In this document: positions 48,817-62,086 of the stretch, piece after piece
How positions within the stretch are numbered: position 1 is the first letter of the stretch
How the letters are laid out: each line of letters begins with the position of its first letter
Assembly: GCA_964388065.1 (NCBI GenBank)
Contig: CAYLZS010000129.1
Span: 1 to 62,086, forward strand
Source of the DNA: an uncultured Granulosicoccaceae bacterium
Lineage (GTDB): Bacteria > Pseudomonadota > Gammaproteobacteria > Granulosicoccales > Granulosicoccaceae
Reading direction: 5' to 3'
DNA length: 62,086 nucleotides
Program-made: the position numbers and the translations under genes
Notes under the pieces: generated by a model
Seen by the model: only the letters and a program-made list of their open reading frames with translations
What the model was told of the DNA's origin: nothing
The model's database searches: none

Positions 48817-49254
48817 CTACAGATCACCAAACTGTTCTTTAACATACTCTGGAATATCATCACGAGACGGCAATTGTACAGACTTGCCGTCTTCACCCAT
48901 AGCCACAAAAGTGAAAGTCGCTTCAGTCACTTTTTCACGTACCCCGATGCGGTCGCGCCTTACCCACGCCTCAACCAGAACATCCATTGACGAACGTCCG
49001 ATGCGAACCACAGAAGTATATATACCGAGTATATCCCCTACTTTGACTGGCCGATAAAAGCGCATACCGTCAATTGCCGCAGTTACCACCCGGCCCTGAG
49101 CTCTCTGACCCGCACATATACCTGCTGCCATATCCATTTGTGACAAAACCCAGCCACCAAAAATGTCACCGGCAGGATTGGTATCGCTCTGCATTGCCAT
49201 GGTACGGGTGGTCGGCGATCGCCTGGAGGTTTCGCTATCAACGTCTTCGGTCAT
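48817..49254 (-). CDS. acyl-CoA thioesterase (YciA-like)
   Basis: TNPAGDIFGGWVLSQMDMAAG...V.FY.PVKVGD pattern, 145 aa. Confidence 0.8.
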   Translation of the reverse strand: MTEDVDSETSRRSPTTRTMAMQSDTNPAGDIFGGWVLSQMDMAAGICAGQRAQGRVVTAAIDGMRFYRPVKVGDILGIYTSVVRIGRSSMDVLVEAWVRRDRIGVREKVTEATFTFVAMGEDGKSVQLPSRDDIPEYVKEQFGDL

Positions 49255-49357
49255 AAATTTATTTCGAGTTTTAGTGCGTTAGTGGATTGCTAATTGGCGG
49301 GAACAATAACATTGCACCAGCGTACAATCACGTGTTTTTGAAACAACGTTCTGCGCT

Positions 49358-49942
49358 CTACCTCAGACCGTCTTCACCGACAACATCTTTGGCATTCAGT
49401 CCTCCGGCCCGATTATGTACTCGTGCACCGGTAGACATGACGAGCACAAGCACCAGCTCGTTTGCACGCGGTGCATCGTTGACCCCAACCTCCATTGCAT
49501 CAAAGTGCGATCTTACATAAGAAGCATTAGTGTGCGTCATCGGAACATCCAGCCTGGTACCTGGTGCACCCACCTTCTTGGTCGACGGTACGATAGCCAT
49601 ACTGTCTTTAATTAATTCACGCATCGAGTATCCACCTGGTACATGCCACAGTGCACCGTGTTCAATTTCTCCGGCCTCACCGACAATCGCACCTTTACCA
49701 TAGCCCTGAATATTGTCAGGGTTACCACCCAGCGCGTCGATTAACTTACCTGCCATTTGCACACCTAACGGCTTCAGATCATCCATAAACCCGGATATTT
49801 CCTGTTCATAGCTTCCGGCGTAAGGGTTATCAATGACCGCAAGGCACGAAGCTTTATACAGTGGCTTATCTGCGACCGGACCACCCTCGTGAAAGGTTTC
49901 CTCAATGTTCACTACCATTTTTCTGATTTTTACTTCAGGCAT
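49358..49942 (-). CDS. 'amino acid synthesis' family protein (AA_synth / DUF1185)
   Basis: KIRKMVVNIEETFHEGG...NPYAG...YGKGAIVGEAGEIEHGALWH...PSTKKVGAPGTRLDVP...SYVRSHFDAMEV matches this family. Confidence 0.8.
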   Translation of the reverse strand: MPEVKIRKMVVNIEETFHEGGPVADKPLYKASCLAVIDNPYAGSYEQEISGFMDDLKPLGVQMAGKLIDALGGNPDNIQGYGKGAIVGEAGEIEHGALWHVPGGYSMRELIKDSMAIVPSTKKVGAPGTRLDVPMTHTNASYVRSHFDAMEVGVNDAPRANELVLVLVMSTGARVHNRAGGLNAKDVVGEDGLR

Positions 49943-50027
49943 CAGTACATTCTCCGCTTAATCATTGAAATGTTCACCGTTTCGATATTCCTGATTCTAC
50001 AGGCTTTAATCAAATACTTTTTTCTAG

Positions 50028-50092
50028 TCGTATTTTCCGGTCGTATTTTCCGGTCGTATTTTCAGGTTGTATTTTCAGGTCGAATGATCTCG
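50028..50092. repeat. 13-bp tandem repeat x4-5 (TCGTATTTTCCGG consensus)
   Basis: Read directly. Units are tcgtattttccgg x2 / tcgtattttcagg / ttgtattttcagg / a degenerate fifth. It covers the stop and last codons of the MMPL gene and lies 86-150 bp upstream of the AA_synth gene start. Confidence 0.9.
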
Positions 50093-52426
50093 ATCGACCG
50101 CCATCAATACTGGTGGCAACAACAAATAATCTGCGATCAGTGCAAACGCAATGGTAATTGCGGTGAGAATCCCCATCTCTGAATTTACTTTAAATCCTGA
50201 CCAGTACAAAACGATAAAGCCGGATATTAAAGTCACAGAGGTTACCAACAGAGCTACTCCAACGGTCTCGAAGGTGTTCACAATTGCCTGCTCAGGCAGC
50301 AAGCCCTGCTCGCGTCTGGCACGCAGATATTTACTAAGAAAATGCACGGTATCATCGACAACAATGCCAAGCGTTACCGCCACAACCACAGCAATAGATA
50401 AACCGGCCACCCCGACAGTGTAGCCCCATAAGCCCAGTCCCATTGCAGCTGGTACAAGATTAGGGATAAGGCTGACCAGCCCAATCTTCAAACTGCGCAG
50501 TGCAAAGATGAGTATCAGAGAAATCAGTACCAGTGCCACCAGTGAACCGAACAACATTGACTTGATATTGCGCTCCGAGATATACGCAAAAATCATTGAT
50601 AGCCCGCTACCCTGCGCGTAGTGTGCAGGTGCATTTTCAGTCAGCCATTTTTCCGCACGTGCATTCAGGTTCCTCATTTCTAAAGACGATGCATCCTGCA
50701 CTATTGCCACTACTCGACTCTGGGACTTCGCAATATCAATAGTATTGTTAAGATCAAGCCCGTAAGGCAGAGACATTTCGTACATCAGAAGATACTGCGC
50801 AGTAAGCTCGCGGGACTCCGGTATTACCTGATAGGCCGGATCATCACCGTTCATGCTTCTATTCAGTTCTTTTATAGTTGTACTGATTGCACCAACATTG
50901 GTTACTTTGGACTGTTGCCTGAGCCACGCTCTAAAATTATCGACATGCAGCAGGTAGGCAGGATCACTGACACCACCATCACTTGCCGCCGGTAAGGACC
51001 ACTCTATGGCGTTCAGGCCAGTTAGTCGCTGCTCTATGAAATCTGTATCACGCCGTATTTCGAACTTTTCACTGAAGTAGGTAAGAAAGTTATCATCGAG
51101 CTTTATTTTAAAGCTGCCAAGCGACAATACAAAAACCAGTACTCCCATACTCCATAGCAATGCTTTGTCGTGTCGGACGACAAAAGCACCCAGTGCCGTC
51201 ATTCCGTTACGCATTATCGATACACTGCCAGCTGGTTTGAGTTTTACCAGTGTCAGCAAGGCCGGCAACATGGTCACAGACAACACAAAGCCTGCAAGCA
51301 CACCCGTTGCGACTATGTTACCGAGCAGGCGAAATGGAGGCGCATCTGAAAAGTTAAGCGTCAGGAATCCGATTGCGGTTGTGGCGCTGGTGATAAAAAT
51401 TGGTGCAAAATTAATTCTCAGTGACTCAGCCACAGCCTTTGTTTGTTCCCATCCCAGCGCCATTCGTTGTCTGACAGTGACAAGCACATGTACACAATGA
51501 GCAACCGCAACGGTCGAGATAATTATCGGCGCACCCGTTGTTCCGGCGTTTAGTACCACCCCGCTCCAACCTGCAAGCCCCATGGCAACGGTAACTGACA
51601 TGACGATAAGCAGCATTACCGACAGTGTTGCCCACACCGTTTTAAGCGCCAGGCCGACTATCAGCAAGATGATAAAAAACATAATCGGAATCAGCACAGC
51701 ACCTTCAGCGTTTGGCAACACCGTGAATGCAACATCAAATGGCGCACCACCGGTTAAATAGAAATTTAATTCCGGATAACGGTTTTCAAAATCGGCAAGT
51801 AAATCATTTGTGTAGTCGACAATTTCATACACGGCATCGAGGTTATCTTCAGGTTTTAACACAGTGATGTTAAAAGCCGCGACCGTTGCGTCTTCAGAAA
51901 TTAGCCGATTAACCAGAATTTCTTTTTCCAGAGCTGTTTTGATAATTTCATCAGCCTGCGTCTGGGTGATCACTCCCTCTGTGTCAATCAGATTGGTCAC
52001 CAGAAGGTCATCACCATCCGCTAAGGTATGCTGAAAATTTGACAGTGAATCTACGCGACTTGAATAGGGAATCTTCCATGCAGCTTCAGTTAACTCGCGC
52101 ACCGCGGTGAGGACTTTCGGATCTGCCAGACTACCGCTCACTGGCGCCAGCGCAATAAATACATTGTCTGTTTTTGTGTAAGTATCTTCGAGCGCTTCCA
52201 GAGCCTGCAGGTGCGGGTTATCTTTACCGAAGAACACACGGTTATCCGGGTTGTTGGTGAGCTTCGCCATACCAGCCGATGCGATCAACACCAGAATTAC
52301 ACCCACACCAAGAACCATTTTGGGAAACCGGAGTATCAGCTCACGACAGGTTGTGGAGAATCCATCGCTTTGTACGCTCTCGCCCTGATGATTCAGCGCC
52401 TGTTTATTTGCGGTCTTATTTTTCAT
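50075..52426 (-). CDS. MMPL/RND-superfamily exporter (COG1033-like)
   Basis: 783 aa with two 6-TM bundles, each preceded by a large periplasmic loop. Repeated motif ...DD.VHFL.KY... Confidence 0.8.
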   Translation of the reverse strand: MKNKTANKQALNHQGESVQSDGFSTTCRELILRFPKMVLGVGVILVLIASAGMAKLTNNPDNRVFFGKDNPHLQALEALEDTYTKTDNVFIALAPVSGSLADPKVLTAVRELTEAAWKIPYSSRVDSLSNFQHTLADGDDLLVTNLIDTEGVITQTQADEIIKTALEKEILVNRLISEDATVAAFNITVLKPEDNLDAVYEIVDYTNDLLADFENRYPELNFYLTGGAPFDVAFTVLPNAEGAVLIPIMFFIILLIVGLALKTVWATLSVMLLIVMSVTVAMGLAGWSGVVLNAGTTGAPIIISTVAVAHCVHVLVTVRQRMALGWEQTKAVAESLRINFAPIFITSATTAIGFLTLNFSDAPPFRLLGNIVATGVLAGFVLSVTMLPALLTLVKLKPAGSVSIMRNGMTALGAFVVRHDKALLWSMGVLVFVLSLGSFKIKLDDNFLTYFSEKFEIRRDTDFIEQRLTGLNAIEWSLPAASDGGVSDPAYLLHVDNFRAWLRQQSKVTNVGAISTTIKELNRSMNGDDPAYQVIPESRELTAQYLLMYEMSLPYGLDLNNTIDIAKSQSRVVAIVQDASSLEMRNLNARAEKWLTENAPAHYAQGSGLSMIFAYISERNIKSMLFGSLVALVLISLILIFALRSLKIGLVSLIPNLVPAAMGLGLWGYTVGVAGLSIAVVVAVTLGIVVDDTVHFLSKYLRARREQGLLPEQAIVNTFETVGVALLVTSVTLISGFIVLYWSGFKVNSEMGILTAITIAFALIADYLLLPPVLMAVDRDHST

Positions 52427-56574: not shown

Positions 56575-57600
56575 ATGACAACTATGTCAAACAAAGGCCA
56601 CGTTTTGGTAGTGGACGATGAAGAAACCATCGTCACTGTTGTGCGCGGCATTCTCGAGGCAGATGGCTATACGACAGTTGCAGCCCTGAGCGCTGAAGTA
56701 GCACTCGAGATCTTTGCAATAAATAAAGTCGACATGGTAATCACAGATATTCGCATGGGTGGCATGGACGGCTTCGAACTGATGAGACGTCTCAAGATGC
56801 TGGACGAAAACCTCAACGTTATCGTTCTGACCGGTTTTGACAGCTATGACACTGTTCTCAAAGCACTACAGTTTGGTGCATACGACTACCTGCAGAAGCC
56901 ACTTGATAACCACGCCGGTTTGTTGGCTGCAGTTGACCGCGCCTGCTCCAGCTCGAGATTGCGCAGAGAAAACGCACAACTGATCAAAGAACTGGAACAG
57001 AGTCACGCCAGATTATCAAAAGCCAATGAAGGGTTGCTGGCAGCCAATCATCAGCTACAAAAGATGGCATCAACCGACACCTTGACGCTGCTCTATAATC
57101 GCCGCCACTTTGAACAGGTTATCAAACGCGAGGTCGATAGACGCAATCGTTATGGTTTACCGTTATCTGTAGTAATGATTGATATTGATTTTTTCAAATC
57201 AATCAACGATACGTACGGTCACGAAGCGGGGGATAAGGCCCTTATTAAAGTAGCTGCAGTTATAACCGAGAGTGCACGCACGGCTGACATTATAGCGCGC
57301 TTCGGCGGTGAAGAATTCGTTGCTGTACTTCCGCAAACAGAAGCCGAGAGCGCTACCGTGTTCGCTGAGCGTACCCGTGCAGCTCTTGAACAGGAAAAGT
57401 TTGTCATTGATGGTAAAGAAATTAACCTCACGATGAGTCTCGGGGTCGCAGGTATCTCTGCCGCAGGCGGTATAACTGACCCGGAAACAATGATGAAAGC
57501 AGCTGACAAAGCTTTGTACGATGCAAAAAACAGCGGTCGAAATCGCTACGTCTGTGCTCCTGATATTGAAGGTAAACCCAGAAACAACAGGGCCGCCTGA
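56575..57600 (+). CDS. response regulator receiver-GGDEF diguanylate cyclase
   Basis: REC domain (VLVVDDEE..., DMVITDIRMGGMDG), a coiled linker, and a GGDEF domain with intact GGEEF and an RTAD I-site 5 residues upstream. Confidence 0.9.
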   Translation: MTTMSNKGHVLVVDDEETIVTVVRGILEADGYTTVAALSAEVALEIFAINKVDMVITDIRMGGMDGFELMRRLKMLDENLNVIVLTGFDSYDTVLKALQFGAYDYLQKPLDNHAGLLAAVDRACSSSRLRRENAQLIKELEQSHARLSKANEGLLAANHQLQKMASTDTLTLLYNRRHFEQVIKREVDRRNRYGLPLSVVMIDIDFFKSINDTYGHEAGDKALIKVAAVITESARTADIIARFGGEEFVAVLPQTEAESATVFAERTRAALEQEKFVIDGKEINLTMSLGVAGISAAGGITDPETMMKAADKALYDAKNSGRNRYVCAPDIEGKPRNNRAA

Positions 57601-57605
57601 CAATA

Positions 57606-59123
57606 CTACAAGTCGTGACAACCCGGTTGCCGCGGACAAGCACTGCTTCTGGGACAAATAACCCGTGCATCATTTTCTATACCTCGCTCGACCCAGGAAA
57701 TATTTAAGATTTTCGCAACCCGGGTGAGTTCCTTTTTTATAGAAGCCGGAATCGGTGCCGAACCACCGTTACCACCACATGCCTTTTTAAGGTCTACCGC
57801 CAGAGACAACGGATCATGCCCTTGTGCCGCAATGGCCGGGTTAACATCTACACCAACACACAGCACTTGTTGCGTACCCGCTAAATCTTCAACCGCAACA
57901 GATTCACAGGCATAGATACGCGACTCGCCACCGACATCGAGCAATGATATTTGGGCCGATGACCCAGCCGGGGTTTCATTTAATTTTCTGAACACAGCCC
58001 AGTGCTGACAGGGATCCTGAACCATTCTCATATTGCCCCACGGAAGTGGAATACCGTTACCCCGGTAAACTGCGTTTAACCGCCCCGGCGGATAAGCATC
58101 AAAGTAGTGCCAGTGAGGATAAGGTGATACAGACGTCATTCGACGCATGGCTATTGAATGCGATACATCTACCAGATTTCCACTGTTTGCCTCATAGCCA
58201 TTGCGCTCTAACAGTCTTCGAAATGGAACCTTCGGGCAAAGCAATGCCGCTGCAAAAAAACTGCATTCGAAATCTCGCCAGGCAAGCATTATATCTTTGG
58301 CATCGACAGCACTCTTTTTATTGATGTTAGTTGTCGCTTCACGAATGCCGCTAACATAGTGCTTGCCGGTTAACATCGCACTTTTTACACCGTCACCGTC
58401 ATGCAGAATCTTGTGCCCGATGTAGACCGCAAGATCATACTTTTTTCTAACCGGTTGCGCTTCAAGTTCGCGATTCAGATAAATACTATTGGGTGCTTCA
58501 AAAAACGAACGCACCAGACTGCCATCGCTTACACCCAGATGAGCGGCCGTATCATCCGGCAGCGTGTCAAACCATGTAATTTTCAATCCTGCAGATGCCG
58601 TCATTTCCTCCAATGCCTGCAGTGACAGCGGCATCTGCTTGTGGCCAATGCCTTCCGCTGCGCGCTCCAGATCGGGAAATTGATTCTGGTGTGCCTCCTG
58701 GTGAGCCCTTATTAACAAGTGTGCGAACTGACGACCCGTAGTACCAGTCTGCGACAGCATTTCGGGAATAGCGATTTGCAGAATTTCATTGGTAAACAAA
58801 AATCCCGGCTCCAGCGACATACCGGTGATACCACCCCGGCTGCCTTTGTCTGGCACCAGACCGTCATCAACCGGCATATCGTCAAGAAACCACTCCGGGT
58901 CTTTCTGAAAAACCGACGCAATTACCTCGAGCATTGCAAGCCGAGGTGTGCGCTTGCCCTGCTCGATCATGGAAATGTAGGAAACTGACGGTGCTGCTTC
59001 AGGATTTATTTTGATACATCGAGCAGATAAATCCTCCATCGTTAGCTTATTGTTTTTTCTAAGATTTTTTATCTTTGCACCCAAAAAATGTGCATTTCTT
59101 ATCAACTTTTTCGGAGAGCTCAT
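57606..59123 (-). CDS. XRE-HTH / M78-like / DUF2083 transcriptional regulator (RamB / ScfR / PrpR-type short-chain acyl-CoA regulator)
   Basis: N-terminal HTH (LGAKIKNLRKNNKLTMEDLSARC...SYISMIEQGKRTP). Central domain with a degenerate HExxH reading HKILH. C-terminal Cys cluster ICPRSSACPRQPGC. Divergent from the aceA locus. Confidence 0.75.
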   Translation of the reverse strand: MSSPKKLIRNAHFLGAKIKNLRKNNKLTMEDLSARCIKINPEAAPSVSYISMIEQGKRTPRLAMLEVIASVFQKDPEWFLDDMPVDDGLVPDKGSRGGITGMSLEPGFLFTNEILQIAIPEMLSQTGTTGRQFAHLLIRAHQEAHQNQFPDLERAAEGIGHKQMPLSLQALEEMTASAGLKITWFDTLPDDTAAHLGVSDGSLVRSFFEAPNSIYLNRELEAQPVRKKYDLAVYIGHKILHDGDGVKSAMLTGKHYVSGIREATTNINKKSAVDAKDIMLAWRDFECSFFAAALLCPKVPFRRLLERNGYEANSGNLVDVSHSIAMRRMTSVSPYPHWHYFDAYPPGRLNAVYRGNGIPLPWGNMRMVQDPCQHWAVFRKLNETPAGSSAQISLLDVGGESRIYACESVAVEDLAGTQQVLCVGVDVNPAIAAQGHDPLSLAVDLKKACGGNGGSAPIPASIKKELTRVAKILNISWVERGIENDARVICPRSSACPRQPGCHDL

Positions 59124-59127
59124 TTGT

Positions 59128-59179
59128 AAATTTCACATTGTGTAATTTCTATTGTGAAATTATAACACACAATTTCTAT
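59128..59179. promoter_or_regulatory. operator-like repeats in the regulator/aceA-locus divergent region
   Basis: Inverted repeat ATTTCACA (59130-59137) / TGTGAAAT (59153-59160), and direct repeat (T/C)AATTTCTAT at 59143-59152 and 59170-59179. Confidence 0.35.
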
Positions 59180-59231
59180 ACTAGTGCTTCGACAATTGAG
59201 CCATCGGACTGAAACTGAACTGGAGCACGCT

Positions 59232-60455
59232 ATGACCACTGACACAAAAGACTACCTGGACCACAATGGCTTTTTGATTGCCAGAGAATTTCACCGCTTC
59301 ATGGAACAGTCGGTGATTACATCGACGTCACTCAGCGCAGAAGACTTTTGGCAGGCTTTTTATGAACTGCTCACCAGATCAGCAACCGACAAAACCGAAT
59401 GCACACAAGCCGGTCCCTTATGCGAGCAGTCAATGACCGAGATTCCGGTTAGTCAGTGCAATCAGACCGCCGATGCTGCTACCTCCTGGGGAAGCCTTTA
59501 CCAGGCTTTGTACACTGACAACGCCATACCACATAGTGCCGGCTTAAAGCCCGGTACCAGTGTCAACGCTGCACGACGCGATCGTGTAATCCACTGCGCA
59601 AAGGACTTCCTGGATAAAACCTATCCGCTGACCGAAGGCTCGCATCGTGACGCGCTGAGCTACATGGTGTACTTCCAGAATCTGCTGGTGATTCTTGCCG
59701 ATGGCAGTACCACCGGCCTGCAGAATCCAAATCAGTATGCAGGCAAGAACGGCCCAAGGGACAAACCAGACAGCATTCTGCTGGAACACAACGGAATCCA
59801 TACCGAAATTCTGTTTGACTGCAATGGCCACACTGGCTGCAAGGACCTGGCTGCCATTGACGATATTCAGCTCGAATCAGCCATCCCGACCCTGTTCAAC
59901 TTAAACGCCGACACTGTCAGCCAGAAGTGCAGCACCTACGACAACTGGATGCAAATTGTAAAACGCCGTGGAAAAACATTTTCCAACCGGCTTGGTGAGA
60001 ACGTTTCGATCGATTGCAACAACTGGGCAATAACTACTTCCGCAAATGACAACCCCATCGACAGTCACTCAAATGCACTGGTACTCGATCAACAGGGATA
60101 CCGGGTGCCCGAAGCAATCATCGATGTGCTGACCGCGGCTGTTATTAACTCAGCTTTCTCAAAGGGTTCGAATCAACTGAATGTAGTTGCGCTGCAACCA
60201 GATGAGAATATCAGCGACTGCTTTATAGCCGGTTTACAGCAGATGCTGGCACTGACTGCCGGAATTCAACGGGCTGAACCGGTACCAGCCCCTGGTGAAA
60301 CCCGGATTAAAGTATTTGCAGCCTCTGCCGATAATCCCGCTCAAACCAAAAACCGGTCCATACCTGAAGTTTCCCAATTGAGAAGTCCCGCTACTGAAGT
60401 CCTCAGCACAATGCGTAGTCACGGATATGACGTGAAGCAGACAGCCTCAATGTAA
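59232..60455 (+). CDS. malate synthase G-like protein, truncated and lacking recognisable catalytic residues (pseudoenzyme or gene remnant)
   Basis: 407 codons from ATG 59232 (RBS GGAG). WGSLYQALY, FLDKTYPLTEGSH, ILLEHNGIHTEILFD and IQLESAIPTL line up by eye with the GlcB blocks RWGSLYDALY, FLD..LPL..GS, LL.NNGLHIE..ID and E(S/A)AI.TI.D.EDS. The ORF stops where GlcB would be only about 60 percent complete. Confidence 0.55.
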   Translation: MTTDTKDYLDHNGFLIAREFHRFMEQSVITSTSLSAEDFWQAFYELLTRSATDKTECTQAGPLCEQSMTEIPVSQCNQTADAATSWGSLYQALYTDNAIPHSAGLKPGTSVNAARRDRVIHCAKDFLDKTYPLTEGSHRDALSYMVYFQNLLVILADGSTTGLQNPNQYAGKNGPRDKPDSILLEHNGIHTEILFDCNGHTGCKDLAAIDDIQLESAIPTLFNLNADTVSQKCSTYDNWMQIVKRRGKTFSNRLGENVSIDCNNWAITTSANDNPIDSHSNALVLDQQGYRVPEAIIDVLTAAVINSAFSKGSNQLNVVALQPDENISDCFIAGLQQMLALTAGIQRAEPVPAPGETRIKVFAASADNPAQTKNRSIPEVSQLRSPATEVLSTMRSHGYDVKQTASM

Positions 60456-60526
60456 CTGGCCAGATCCAAAGATTTTTTTATACCGGACTAAGCAAACCCG
60501 GCCCAACTAAAACACAGAGGTGATTC

Positions 60527-62086
60527 GTGAATTCATATTCGGATGAGATAAACAACAGCGCAAAAGTAATTTCCGCAGCTGGCAGTTCCTGGAGCGCGAT
60601 TGATGCAGAGTACGTAGCGAGAATGCGATTGCAAAACCGCTTTCATACCGGGCTCGACATCGCCCGACATACTGCCAAAATCATGCGTGAAGATATGGCG
60701 GCCTACGATGCCGACTCTTCAAAGTACACACAGTCACTGGGTGTATGGCACGGCTTTATTGCACAACAAAAAATGATCTCGGTAAAAAAACACTTTGCAG
60801 AAACCCGCGGTCGCTACCTTTACCTGTCAGGCTGGATGATCGCGGCGCTGCGTTCTGAATTTGGTCCTTTGCCTGATCAGTCAATGCATGAGAAAACATC
60901 TGTTCCGGCATTAATCGAGGAACTGTACACGTTTCTTAGACAAGCTGACGCTCGTGAACTTCGACACCTCTTTACCGAACTCGACGACGCTAAAGCTCAG
61001 GGTAACGAAGTAGCTGCAAAAGCTGTTACTACTAAAATTGATAACTTCGAAACTCATGTTGTGCCAATCATTGCAGATATTGATGCGGGTTTTGGTAACG
61101 AAGAAGCGACTTACCTGCTGGCAAAAAAGCTGATTGAAGCCGGTGCATGTTGCCTGCAGATTGAAAATCAGGTATCCGACGTCAAGCAGTGTGGTCACCA
61201 GGACGGCAAAGTCACCGTACCTCACGAAGATTTCATCGCAAAGATCAATGCACTGCGTTACGCATTTCTTGAACTGGGCGTAGACGACGGCGTTATCGTT
61301 GCACGTACTGACTCACTAGGAGCAGGACTAACTCAAAAAATTCCAGTGTCTAAGGCACCGGGAGATCTGGCTGACCAATATATTTCATTCATTGACGGCG
61401 AAGAAGTAACAGACGCGTCTGAACTGGGTTCCGGCGATATTGTTATAAAGCGCGAAGGCAAGATGGTGAAAACCTCACGCCTGCCTAACGGATTGATTCA
61501 GTTCAAGCCAGACACTGGCGAAGACCGTGTTGTACTCGATTGCATAACAGCGCTTGAAAATGGTGCAGATCTTTTATGGATTGAAACTGAAAAGCCGCAC
61601 GTAGGTCAGATTGCAGGCATGGTTAACCGCATTCGCGATGTCATTCCAAACGCCAAGCTGGTTTACAACAACAGTCCTTCATTTAACTGGACGCTAAACT
61701 TCCGTCAGCAGGTGTTCGATAGCTGGAGTGAAGCGGGTAAAGACGTTTCTGCTTTTGATCGCGACGATCTGATGGACATCAAATACGACGATACTGACCT
61801 AAGCCGCGAAGCAGATGAGAAGATCCGTACCTTTCAGGCAGATGCCGCAGCAGGTGCAGTAATATTCCATCATCTCATTACTCTGCCTACCTATCATACA
61901 GCCGCACTGTCTACTGACACGCTGGCTAAAGGCTACTTCGGTGAAGAAGGTATGCTGGCTTATGTATTCAATGTACAGCGTCAGGAAATTCGCAATGGTC
62001 TCGCGTGTGTTAAGCACCAGGATATGGCGGGTTCAAACATTGGTGATGATCACAAAGAGTACTTCTCTGGAAATCAGGCACTGAAA
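60527..62086 (+). CDS. aceA: isocitrate lyase, long (Pseudomonas AceA-type) form; partial, continues beyond window end
   Basis: Absent from the ORF track because it has no stop in the window. The GTG at 60527 (RBS AGAGG) gives VNSYSDEINN...SSWSAIDAEYVARMRLQNRFHTGLDIA...PLPDQSMHEKT...IIADIDAGFGNEEATYLLAKKLIEAGACCLQIENQVSDVKQCGHQDGKVTVPH...LWIETEKPHVGQ, with 520 in-frame codons to the window end. Confidence 0.9.
   Translation, partial: MNSYSDEINNSAKVISAAGSSWSAIDAEYVARMRLQNRFHTGLDIARHTAKIMREDMAAYDADSSKYTQSLGVWHGFIAQQKMISVKKHFAETRGRYLYLSGWMIAALRSEFGPLPDQSMHEKTSVPALIEELYTFLRQADARELRHLFTELDDAKAQGNEVAAKAVTTKIDNFETHVVPIIADIDAGFGNEEATYLLAKKLIEAGACCLQIENQVSDVKQCGHQDGKVTVPHEDFIAKINALRYAFLELGVDDGVIVARTDSLGAGLTQKIPVSKAPGDLADQYISFIDGEEVTDASELGSGDIVIKREGKMVKTSRLPNGLIQFKPDTGEDRVVLDCITALENGADLLWIETEKPHVGQIAGMVNRIRDVIPNAKLVYNNSPSFNWTLNFRQQVFDSWSEAGKDVSAFDRDDLMDIKYDDTDLSREADEKIRTFQADAAAGAVIFHHLITLPTYHTAALSTDTLAKGYFGEEGMLAYVFNVQRQEIRNGLACVKHQDMAGSNIGDDHKEYFSGNQALK

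Follow-up and report, generated by a model that had tools for sequence, protein, structure and literature searches.

We examined a contig of 62,086 nucleotides (nt) from an uncultured Granulosicoccaceae bacterium (CAYLZS010000129.1 of assembly GCA_964388065.1); the whole of this stretch is referred to as the window. Close to its end, an open reading frame (ORF) of 407 amino acids (aa) lies between a divergently transcribed regulator gene and aceA, the gene for isocitrate lyase (ICL). The product of this ORF descends from malate synthase G (MSG) and is very probably a noncatalytic derivative of that enzyme maintained by selection. We refer to it as the remnant. The locus contains the following features, all positions being those of the window.

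57606..59123, minus strand: divergent regulator, 505 aa, with an XRE-type helix-turn-helix (HTH), a Peptidase_M78/IrrE-like domain, and DUF3612 (Pfam and AlphaFold2 [AF2] model)
59129..59161, no strand assigned: operator-like element AATTTCACAtTGTGTAATTTcTATTGTGAAATT, 6 nt from the regulator start codon
59154..59182, plus strand: putative sigma-70-like promoter of the remnant/aceA unit, with −35 GTGAAA, a 17-nt spacer, and −10 TATACT (consensus scan)
59222..59225, plus strand: ribosome-binding site GGAG, 6 nt 5′ of the ATG (read from the sequence)
59232..60455, plus strand: MSG-derived pseudoenzyme ORF, 407 aa, from the ATG at 59232 to the TAA at 60453-60455, stop codon included
60456..60526, plus strand: 71-nt spacer separating aceA from the ORF; no terminator-like site seen
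60527..62086, plus strand: ICL of the 531-aa NF005074/PRK06498 type, with a GTG start, extending past the window end

The initial annotation, made from the letters alone, had described an intact frame of about 407 codons with a ribosome-binding site, ending some 70 bp before aceA, and all of this agrees with the coordinates above. A GTG at 59184 would lengthen the protein by 16 codons. We rejected it as the start because it is upstream of the conserved −10 box and is used by no homologue.

We asked what the 407-aa protein resembles using sequence, profile, and structure comparisons. Searched against the PDB with phmmer, it matched the MSGs of Pseudomonas aeruginosa, Mycobacterium tuberculosis, and Escherichia coli with E values of ~1e-33, and a profile of its family matched MSG at E ~1e-67. 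Alignment to full-length MSGs with hhalign paired residues 7-348 with MSG residues 2-416 at a probability of 100%. The AF2 model (predicted local distance difference test [pLDDT] score, 76; predicted TM-score [pTM], 0.74) retrieved MSG structures only (Foldseek E ~1e-20; query TM-score [TMq], 0.6). In the Pfam scan, PF20658 (MSG_insertion) alone passed, scoring 84.7 bits against a gathering threshold of 24.8 bits over residues 112-186 and the full profile length, and the TIM-barrel domain PF01274 was not detected. The NCBIfam MSG equivalogs, with cutoffs of 989 bits for TIGR01345 and 565 bits for NF002825, scored the protein at 145.6 and 155.3 bits, below those cutoffs. The 407-aa protein is a clear homologue of MSG, far above chance. 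The initial annotation had reached the same assignment by eye from the blocks WGSLYQALY, FLDKTYPLTEGSH, ILLEHNGIHTEILFD, and IQLESAIPTL, all of which we found in the protein, and the profile search and structure prediction now add significant MSG matches by hhalign, phmmer, and Foldseek.

Mapped onto MSG, the protein divides into the following parts.

59232..59369, plus strand: residues 1-46, what is left of the N-terminal clasp of MSG (25 bits for the family profile against E. coli MSG 3-63)
59487..59879, plus strand: residues 86-216, the WGSLY block and the MSG alpha/beta insertion domain, forming the conserved core (PF20658)
59658..59705, plus strand: residues 143-158, SYMVYFQNLLVILADG, the linked-MSG motif S-Y-x-V-Y-[YF]-[QN]-[HN]-L-[LM]...D-G
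59880..60326, plus strand: residues 217-365, a degenerate half barrel with strands beta2-beta5 (alignments and AF2 secondary structure)
60381..60434, plus strand: residues 384-401, RSPATEVLSTMRSHGYDV, a remnant of barrel helix alpha-8 (profile and MAFFT)

About 50 clasp residues are deleted after residue 46, as seen from the hhalign gap, which accounts for the shortened stretch between the N-terminal FW block and WGSLY that the initial annotation had pointed out. A degenerate strand beta1 is retained, and residues 86-216 carry most of the invariant columns of the family. AF2 predicts a strand at residues 358-363. The model also places a helix at residues 141-157, where the MSG beta-hairpin would be expected; at a pLDDT of ~75 and with an alignment of 31 sequences, we did not rely on it.

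At the C-terminal tail, the final ~22 residues (SPATEVLSTMRSHGYDV) share homology with helix alpha-8 of MSG (VPSPTAATLHALHYH, approximately E. coli residues 535-550) and are preceded by an internal deletion of approximately MSG residues 445-530. In the listed full-length MSGs, a profile of the family C terminus matched the alpha-8 segment with scores of 7-13 bits, compared with a maximum of 4.2 bits among 360 shuffled or reversed control sequences, and MAFFT independently aligned the tail with alpha-8. The less decayed 470-aa relatives read SPTPSAAVLQALQLHH here, which is intermediate between the tail and MSG alpha-8. The tail being an alpha-8 remnant, we regard the protein as an MSG with an internal deletion and not as a plain 60% truncation. 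Thus, the earlier description of the ORF as the N-terminal ~60% of MSG holds for the homology but not for a simple truncation, since an N-terminal deletion, an internal deletion, and loss of the plug are all involved. In total, the Granulosicoccaceae copy has lost ~320 residues relative to MSG, namely, part of the clasp, barrel strands beta6-beta8, and the whole C-terminal plug. P386 of the 407-aa protein aligns with MSG Pro538. In MSG, this proline caps alpha-8 and forms the adenine pocket for acetyl-coenzyme A (acetyl-CoA) (PMC3112382).

The catalytic positions of E. coli MSG correspond to the following in the 407-aa protein.

Asp270 and Glu272: N223 and N225 (hhalign and MAFFT)
Asp273-Ser274: deleted, within a 4-residue deletion after N223-L-N225
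Arg338 (catalytic, RNVGH block): T269, in ITTSAN (hhalign and MAFFT)
Glu427 (first Mg ligand): alignment unreliable; no DEE motif, with Ala in one MAFFT run
Asp455 (second Mg ligand): segment deleted
Asp631 (catalytic base): whole C-terminal plug absent, the protein stopping at the alpha-8 remnant

Each of the 34 full-length MSGs in the comparison has D270, E272, D273, R338, E427, D455, P538, and D631. Across the reduced family the Arg338-equivalent position is variable, and the arginine is kept only in the 470-aa forms. The initial annotation had called the acidic D-x-EDS block, the catalytic arginine, and the segments with the second Mg ligand and the catalytic aspartate lost, and each of these calls stands. 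Its pairing of AASADNP with the MDEERR block is plausible but not established, since hhalign ends at residue 348 and only one MAFFT run places an alanine in the Glu427 column. Of the four positions it singled out, Arg338, Asp455, and Asp631 are therefore lost, while Glu427 could not be reliably aligned. Judged by its sequence, the 407-aa protein cannot be a malate synthase. Searches with tblastn of the 62-kb window and of the flanks of 28 related loci found neither a second malate synthase nor a separate MSG C-terminal half.

We then considered how the remnant has been conserved. A search of 5.8 billion proteins gave 47 clusters of 367-471 aa, from 99% down to ~30% identity and nearly all with PF20658 only. 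In a scan of species-representative genomes, the family was found in Granulosicoccaceae metagenome-assembled genomes alone, in ~19 species, a count that includes a Bugula-associated "Chromatiales" genome. The frame was intact in all loci examined, and length and frame were held down to ~30% identity, where synonymous sites are saturated. For relatives with unsaturated synonymous divergence, we compared nonsynonymous-to-synonymous rate ratios (dN/dS) and protein identities to the window for three genes from the same contigs.

Remnant, whole: dN/dS 0.17 and 0.14; 62-66% identity
Remnant core, residues 86-235: dN/dS 0.07-0.08; 80-83% identity
Remnant flanks: dN/dS mostly 0.1-0.3; 36-67% identity
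Regulator: dN/dS 0.034; 91-93% identity
ICL: dN/dS 0.013-0.021; 97% identity

The half barrel (residues 217-365) gave a dN/dS of ~0.2. The remnant is kept intact under purifying selection, which acts on the full length of the gene and is strongest over the insertion domain. A retained derivative had been preferred over free drift from the start, and the whole-gene ratios, far below 1, bear this out, as does the presence of this short ORF at the equivalent position in relatives.

One contig (L088) is 99% identical to the window. Over 12 kb, the two differ at ~40 sites, 24 of which cluster in the 3′ part of aceA (61000-61900); dS is 0.069 for ICL and 0.003 for the regulator. This cluster points to a recombined tract, or to a mixed assembly, where the contig ends. 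The remnant has four coding differences, all nonsynonymous (A51E, D81N, A82V, and V111I). Farther upstream, at ~49232-50050, an ungapped comparison of the two contigs fails, with ~600 mismatches in 800 nt just upstream of an MMPL-family gene (50075-52426), which implies an indel or a replaced segment between otherwise near-identical strains.

Downstream of the remnant, the aceA product scores 1002 bits against an NCBIfam cutoff of 446 and is 82-97% identical in related Granulosicoccaceae loci, in which the spacing between the ORF and aceA is ~45-190 nt. Since the 71-nt spacer has no terminator on the plus strand, the 407-aa ORF is likely cotranscribed with aceA. The layout of a GGDEF response regulator, the DUF3612 regulator (minus strand), the remnant (plus strand), a 532-aa ICL (plus strand), MatE, and a glutathione S-transferase recurs in ~20 of 24 loci. 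Three Granulosicoccaceae species (L007, which equals L020, and L024 and L025) have long remnants of 470-474 aa that keep DCEN, GRSLLMVRN with the arginine, and LKLAINNEQ. The regulator beside these long forms is 66-67% identical to that of the window, and the genes that follow are a 4HBT (PaaI-like) thioesterase and a divergent flavin adenine dinucleotide monooxygenase, not ICL.

The slot between regulator and ICL is the one in which a glyoxylate-shunt partner had been expected, and in other genera a full-length enzyme fills it. Marinomonas, Psychromonas, and Paraglaciecola carry a full-length MSG of 722-741 aa with intact catalytic residues between a divergent DUF3612 regulator and a 531-aa-type ICL, and ~14 metagenome loci likewise hold full-length MSG in this position. 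By position, therefore, the remnant is orthologous to glcB, and the ancestral module comprised the divergent DUF3612 regulator, the operator/promoter, and glcB-aceA. The Paraglaciecola locus (L174) has the regulator, full-length MSG, ICL, and, further on, a monomeric isocitrate dehydrogenase (IDH).

The same reduction of MSG recurs in other gammaproteobacteria, down to ~190 aa in Shewanella and 111 aa in Granulosicoccus. A profile search of 1.84 billion representatives returned reduced forms beyond Granulosicoccaceae, some of intermediate length (426-514 aa) and many of 150-250 aa. In a metagenome scan of short-form loci, 50 of the 53 with enough upstream DNA had the DUF3612 regulator divergently adjacent, and none of the 53 had ICL within its flanks. 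Three individual short-form look-ups agreed on both points. The regulator is likewise present, with no ICL within the flanks, at the P0130 locus and at those of three 470-aa Granulosicoccaceae forms, and two regulators chosen by taxon name alone both adjoined an MSG-derived gene. In a Granulosicoccus sp. (GCA_947495035.1; L173, 8516-8851, minus strand), an insertion-domain ORF of 111 aa sits between the regulator and monomeric IDH; it is the smallest form and has little beyond the motif-bearing insertion-domain core. Nothing of the barrel or of alpha-8 survives in the 111- to 190-aa forms, which are nonetheless conserved, and the ~190-aa forms have a median dN/dS of 0.11 over 34 pairs. The remnant adjoins aceA in the window locus, but across lineages the conserved partner is the DUF3612 regulator.

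While comparing linked and unlinked MSGs, we identified a motif at residues 143-158 of the window protein (given above) that is present in 17 of 17 full-length regulator-linked MSGs and absent from 17 of 17 unlinked MSGs. The unlinked set comprised Rhodococcus, Dietzia, Pseudomonas, Bermanella, a differently arranged locus of three other Marinomonas genomes, and others. The motif is also present in the 190- to 470-aa remnants shown, and the 111-aa form retains a weaker version. Marinomonas itself has both arrangements: L035 and L050 have a motif-bearing MSG inside the regulator-glcB-aceA module, in L063, L069, and L076, the MSG is canonical, lacks the motif, and is divergent from ICL, and no regulator was found in the flank. 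The window protein carries the marks of the linked lineage, with the motif and a divergent DUF3612 regulator whose operator abuts it. In a neighbor-joining tree of the core (104 columns), linked and derived forms separate, with weak bootstrap support, from unlinked MSGs, a topology compatible with descent of the reduced forms from linked MSGs. The Granulosicoccaceae group had a bootstrap value of 100/200, and the window protein grouped apart from the main ~190-aa cluster, itself at 25/200. The pattern suggests at least two to three separate reductions of MSG. What the reduced forms have in common is the insertion-domain core and its motif, together with the regulator and its operator.

The regulator is the other constant of the system. 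Its Pfam content (DUF3612 at 305.8 bits, with HTH_3 and Peptidase_M78) matches the initial description, as does the NF005074-type ICL on the other side. Regulators of this kind are 62-93% identical across Granulosicoccaceae, Shewanella, Marinomonas, and Paraglaciecola. The best PDB matches of its AF2 model (pLDDT, 72) were 6CZ6, 6CYY, and 6D2S (E 3e-10; target TM-score [TMt], 0.58-0.68), which the PDB labels merely as M. tuberculosis transcriptional regulator and which we take to be M. tuberculosis PrpR. By sequence, the regulator scored 14 bits with the RamB model, against a cutoff of 700 bits, and phmmer against the PDB matched the HTH alone, with no RamB or PrpR match. The fold is thus predicted to be PrpR-like, and the earlier label of a RamB/ScfR-type regulator is therefore right at the level of fold but not at the level of sequence. 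The DUF3612 regulators have nine invariant cysteines, including those in DPC372QHW and in C490-x5-C496-x5-C502 at the C terminus. PrpR binds an Fe-S (iron-sulfur) cluster and CoA. It is plausible that the DUF3612 regulator holds a metal or Fe-S cluster together with an acyl-CoA ligand. In Vibrio natriegens lines evolved on acetate, mutations are reported in a DUF3612 regulator gene (bioRxiv 10.1101/2025.06.23.661028); the V. natriegens gene does not adjoin aceA-aceB.

The operator-like element consists of an inverted AATTTCACA/TGTGAAATT pair and a direct TGTG(T/A)AATT repeat. It occurs once in the window and had no matches in 100 shuffles. The element is nearly invariant in both sequence and position (loci L001-L025, L035, L041, L044, L050, L059, L090-L172, and L173), recurring in Granulosicoccaceae, Marinomonas, Psychromonas, and most loci that encode a ~190-aa form, and its cross-lineage form of ~40 nt reads TTTGTAAAATTCACAnTGTGTAATTTnTATTGTGAAATT. 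The −35 box of the putative promoter falls inside the element, and in related loci a −10 box (TATACT, TATAAT, or TAGACT) follows at a constant offset. On the minus strand, a TATAAT at ~59159-59164 is a candidate −10 of the regulator, which would imply autoregulation. On the far side of the regulator, a response-regulator-GGDEF gene (56575-57600, plus strand) ends 5 nt from the regulator stop codon; it holds this position in distant Granulosicoccaceae loci (L003, L004, L006, L088, and L089) and so may belong to the conserved neighborhood.

Taken together, these data lead us to favor, with chances that we consider evenly balanced, a reading in which the remnant is a selected pseudoenzyme whose insertion-domain core would have a noncatalytic role tied to the regulatory module, by a mechanism that we infer as follows. 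The remnant would be made from a regulator-controlled promoter together with ICL and would act noncatalytically through its insertion-domain core inside the regulatory module. We judge it somewhat more probable than not that the remnant has a part in controlling the glyoxylate-shunt module. It would most likely serve the PrpR-like regulator as a partner or feedback modulator, although action directly on the regulator is a tentative proposal that leans toward the unlikely. The remnant could then be the surviving "moonlighting half" of a trigger-enzyme-like MSG: in the linked MSGs, the insertion domain would have a second function directed at the regulator, and this function would be all that the remnants keep. 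Less likely, the remnant would bind the branch-point enzymes ICL or IDH. To our knowledge, no function is known for the MSG-specific alpha/beta insertion domain. In the most extended form of this model, which is speculative and which we regard as doubtful, the insertion domain would be a regulator-interaction module, the linked MSGs would be trigger enzymes that report shunt status, and the 111- to 514-aa remnants would be co- or antiregulators closing an ICL/IDH feedback loop in many marine gammaproteobacteria.

Several observations weigh against a regulator-directed pseudoenzyme. The remnant protein evolves 5-10 times faster than its neighbors, so the constraint on it is real but loose outside the core. 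The clade of linked and derived forms had a bootstrap value of just 91/200 on 104 columns. In a mirror-tree comparison within Granulosicoccaceae, distances between remnants tracked those of ICL (partial r, 0.57) over those of the regulator (−0.23); there is no regulator-specific covariation, and we read this result as uninformative to mildly contrary. In addition, a PrpR-like regulator could sense acyl-CoA by itself, without a partner, and the adjacency of the regulator could merely reflect a local target promoter.

The main rival, which we consider unlikely, is that the remnant is an accessory or scaffold protein for ICL, or a glyoxylate handler, that is cotranslated with it, and that the regulator link reflects nothing more than its being the regulated first gene. 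Its placement 71 nt upstream of aceA without a terminator, an arrangement found in ~20 of 24 Granulosicoccaceae loci, fits such a role, as do the remnant-ICL distance correlation that persists after control for the regulator (partial r, 0.57) and the fact that the ancestral enzyme consumed the product of ICL. However, for 50 of the 53 short forms, for the three 470-aa forms, and for P0130, the regulator is there but the flanks hold no ICL, the 111-aa Granulosicoccus form precedes IDH and not ICL, and the glyoxylate-binding residues are gone.

Quite improbable in our view is that the remnant keeps or has gained a small-molecule function (with CoA, an acyl-CoA, or some other ligand) or a new enzymatic activity, built on the half barrel together with the WGSLY region and what remains of alpha-8. 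The retained pieces do include beta1 and the NARWGSLY region in some members, and also the alpha-8 helix, where P386 of the window protein falls in the Pro538 column, and the half barrel is under purifying selection (~0.2). However, neither the proline nor the beta1 residues are conserved across the family, the 111- to 190-aa forms are conserved without barrel or alpha-8, and beyond the insertion domain we saw no cluster of conserved polar residues.

That the ORF is a decaying glcB pseudogene, its frame open by chance or for the sake of aceA expression (spacing or translational coupling), is very improbable. The remnant is only 62-66% identical where ICL is 97% identical, all four differences from the 99% relative are nonsynonymous, and the degree of shrinkage differs among lineages, as decay would predict. 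This reading is already largely refuted by a dN/dS of 0.14-0.17 overall and 0.08 in the core, with length and frame kept to ~30% identity, by the deletion of both ends with the middle domain spared in independent lineages, and by short forms with no aceA downstream to benefit from them. Least probable of all is one half of a split malate synthase with the remaining barrel strands and C-terminal plug encoded elsewhere: half barrels can complement each other in principle, but the half that is present has itself lost Arg338 (T269) and the acidic block (NLN plus deletion), and the 62-kb window and the flanks of 28 related loci hold no MSG C-terminal half.

If the regulator-directed pseudoenzyme is real, it would give a first clue to the role of the insertion domain that separates MSG from malate synthase A. 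The comparative pattern yields a concrete hypothesis on this domain and on control of the glyoxylate shunt in marine gammaproteobacteria. It also defines a widespread two-gene unit, a PrpR-like DUF3612 regulator with an MSG remnant, in Shewanella, Granulosicoccaceae, and other marine gammaproteobacteria; the unit is testable in tractable hosts and bears on the split of carbon between the tricarboxylic acid cycle and the glyoxylate shunt. The size series of 725, ~470, ~400, ~190, and 111 aa is a natural case of an enzyme whittled to a noncatalytic core. There is also a consequence for annotation. The ~190-aa Shewanella proteins (P0186 and others, AZQ09367.1, and WP_338591819.1) have no catalytic element, but NF006511 has given them the name "malate synthase" or "Malate synthase G" in RefSeq and UniProt, likely a systematic misannotation. 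Counting the ~190-aa or 407-aa forms as malate synthase would lead metabolic reconstructions to close the glyoxylate shunt wrongly.

Compared with known systems, the 407-aa protein shares clear common descent with MSG (GlcB; E. coli 1D8C and 1P7T, M. tuberculosis 1N8I, and P. aeruginosa 5OAS). The clasp start, beta1, the WGSLY block, the alpha/beta insertion domain, beta2-beta5, and alpha-8 are alignable, but MSG has ~725 aa and the window protein 407. With the acidic block, the arginine, beta6-beta8, and the plug lost and the equivalog scores below cutoff, the window protein is therefore no enzyme of the MSG kind. The linked full-length MSGs of Marinomonas, Psychromonas, and Paraglaciecola, which are presumably working enzymes judging by their residues, share slot, regulator, operator, and motif with it.

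Also close is the NF006511/PRK08951 "malate synthase" of ~190 aa (e.g., Shewanella khirikhana WP_338591819.1), which is likewise reduced, active-site-less, and based on the insertion domain, and which has in common with the window protein the motif, the adjacent DUF3612 regulator, the operator, and purifying selection. Unlike these forms, the window protein retains an N-terminal remnant, the half barrel, and alpha-8 and is followed by aceA. Against NF006511 (~190 positions), it scored 136.2 bits over profile positions 28-162, below the 173-bit cutoff, whereas the Shewanella-type P0186, P0202, and P0236 scored 205-237 bits. Our literature searches on DUF3612, NF006511, PF20658, and truncated malate synthases found no description of the family or its function, the V. 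natriegens preprint being the one relevant item. The initial statement that no truncated MSG paralog linked to aceA had been described thus holds for the literature searched, but NF006511 already models short MSG derivatives, and it therefore fails for annotation resources. Those resources know the ~190-aa branch only.

The regulator has its counterpart in the PrpR/RamB acyl-CoA regulators of actinobacteria, with which it shares an architecture of HTH, M78-like domain, and C-terminal sensor. RamB and PrpR control icl and methylcitrate genes. The window regulator differs in having no sequence-level match to them and in its C-terminal domain, which is Pfam DUF3612. Finally, there are known cases in which a transcription factor is controlled by a trigger enzyme or by a pseudoenzyme of enzymatic origin, e.g., MalY and Aes with MalT and GlnA with TnrA. 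The concept is alike: next to the gene for a pathway regulator lies that for an enzyme of the pathway, or for a dead derivative of it, and the product acts on that regulator. For the window case, the likeness is a working analogy.

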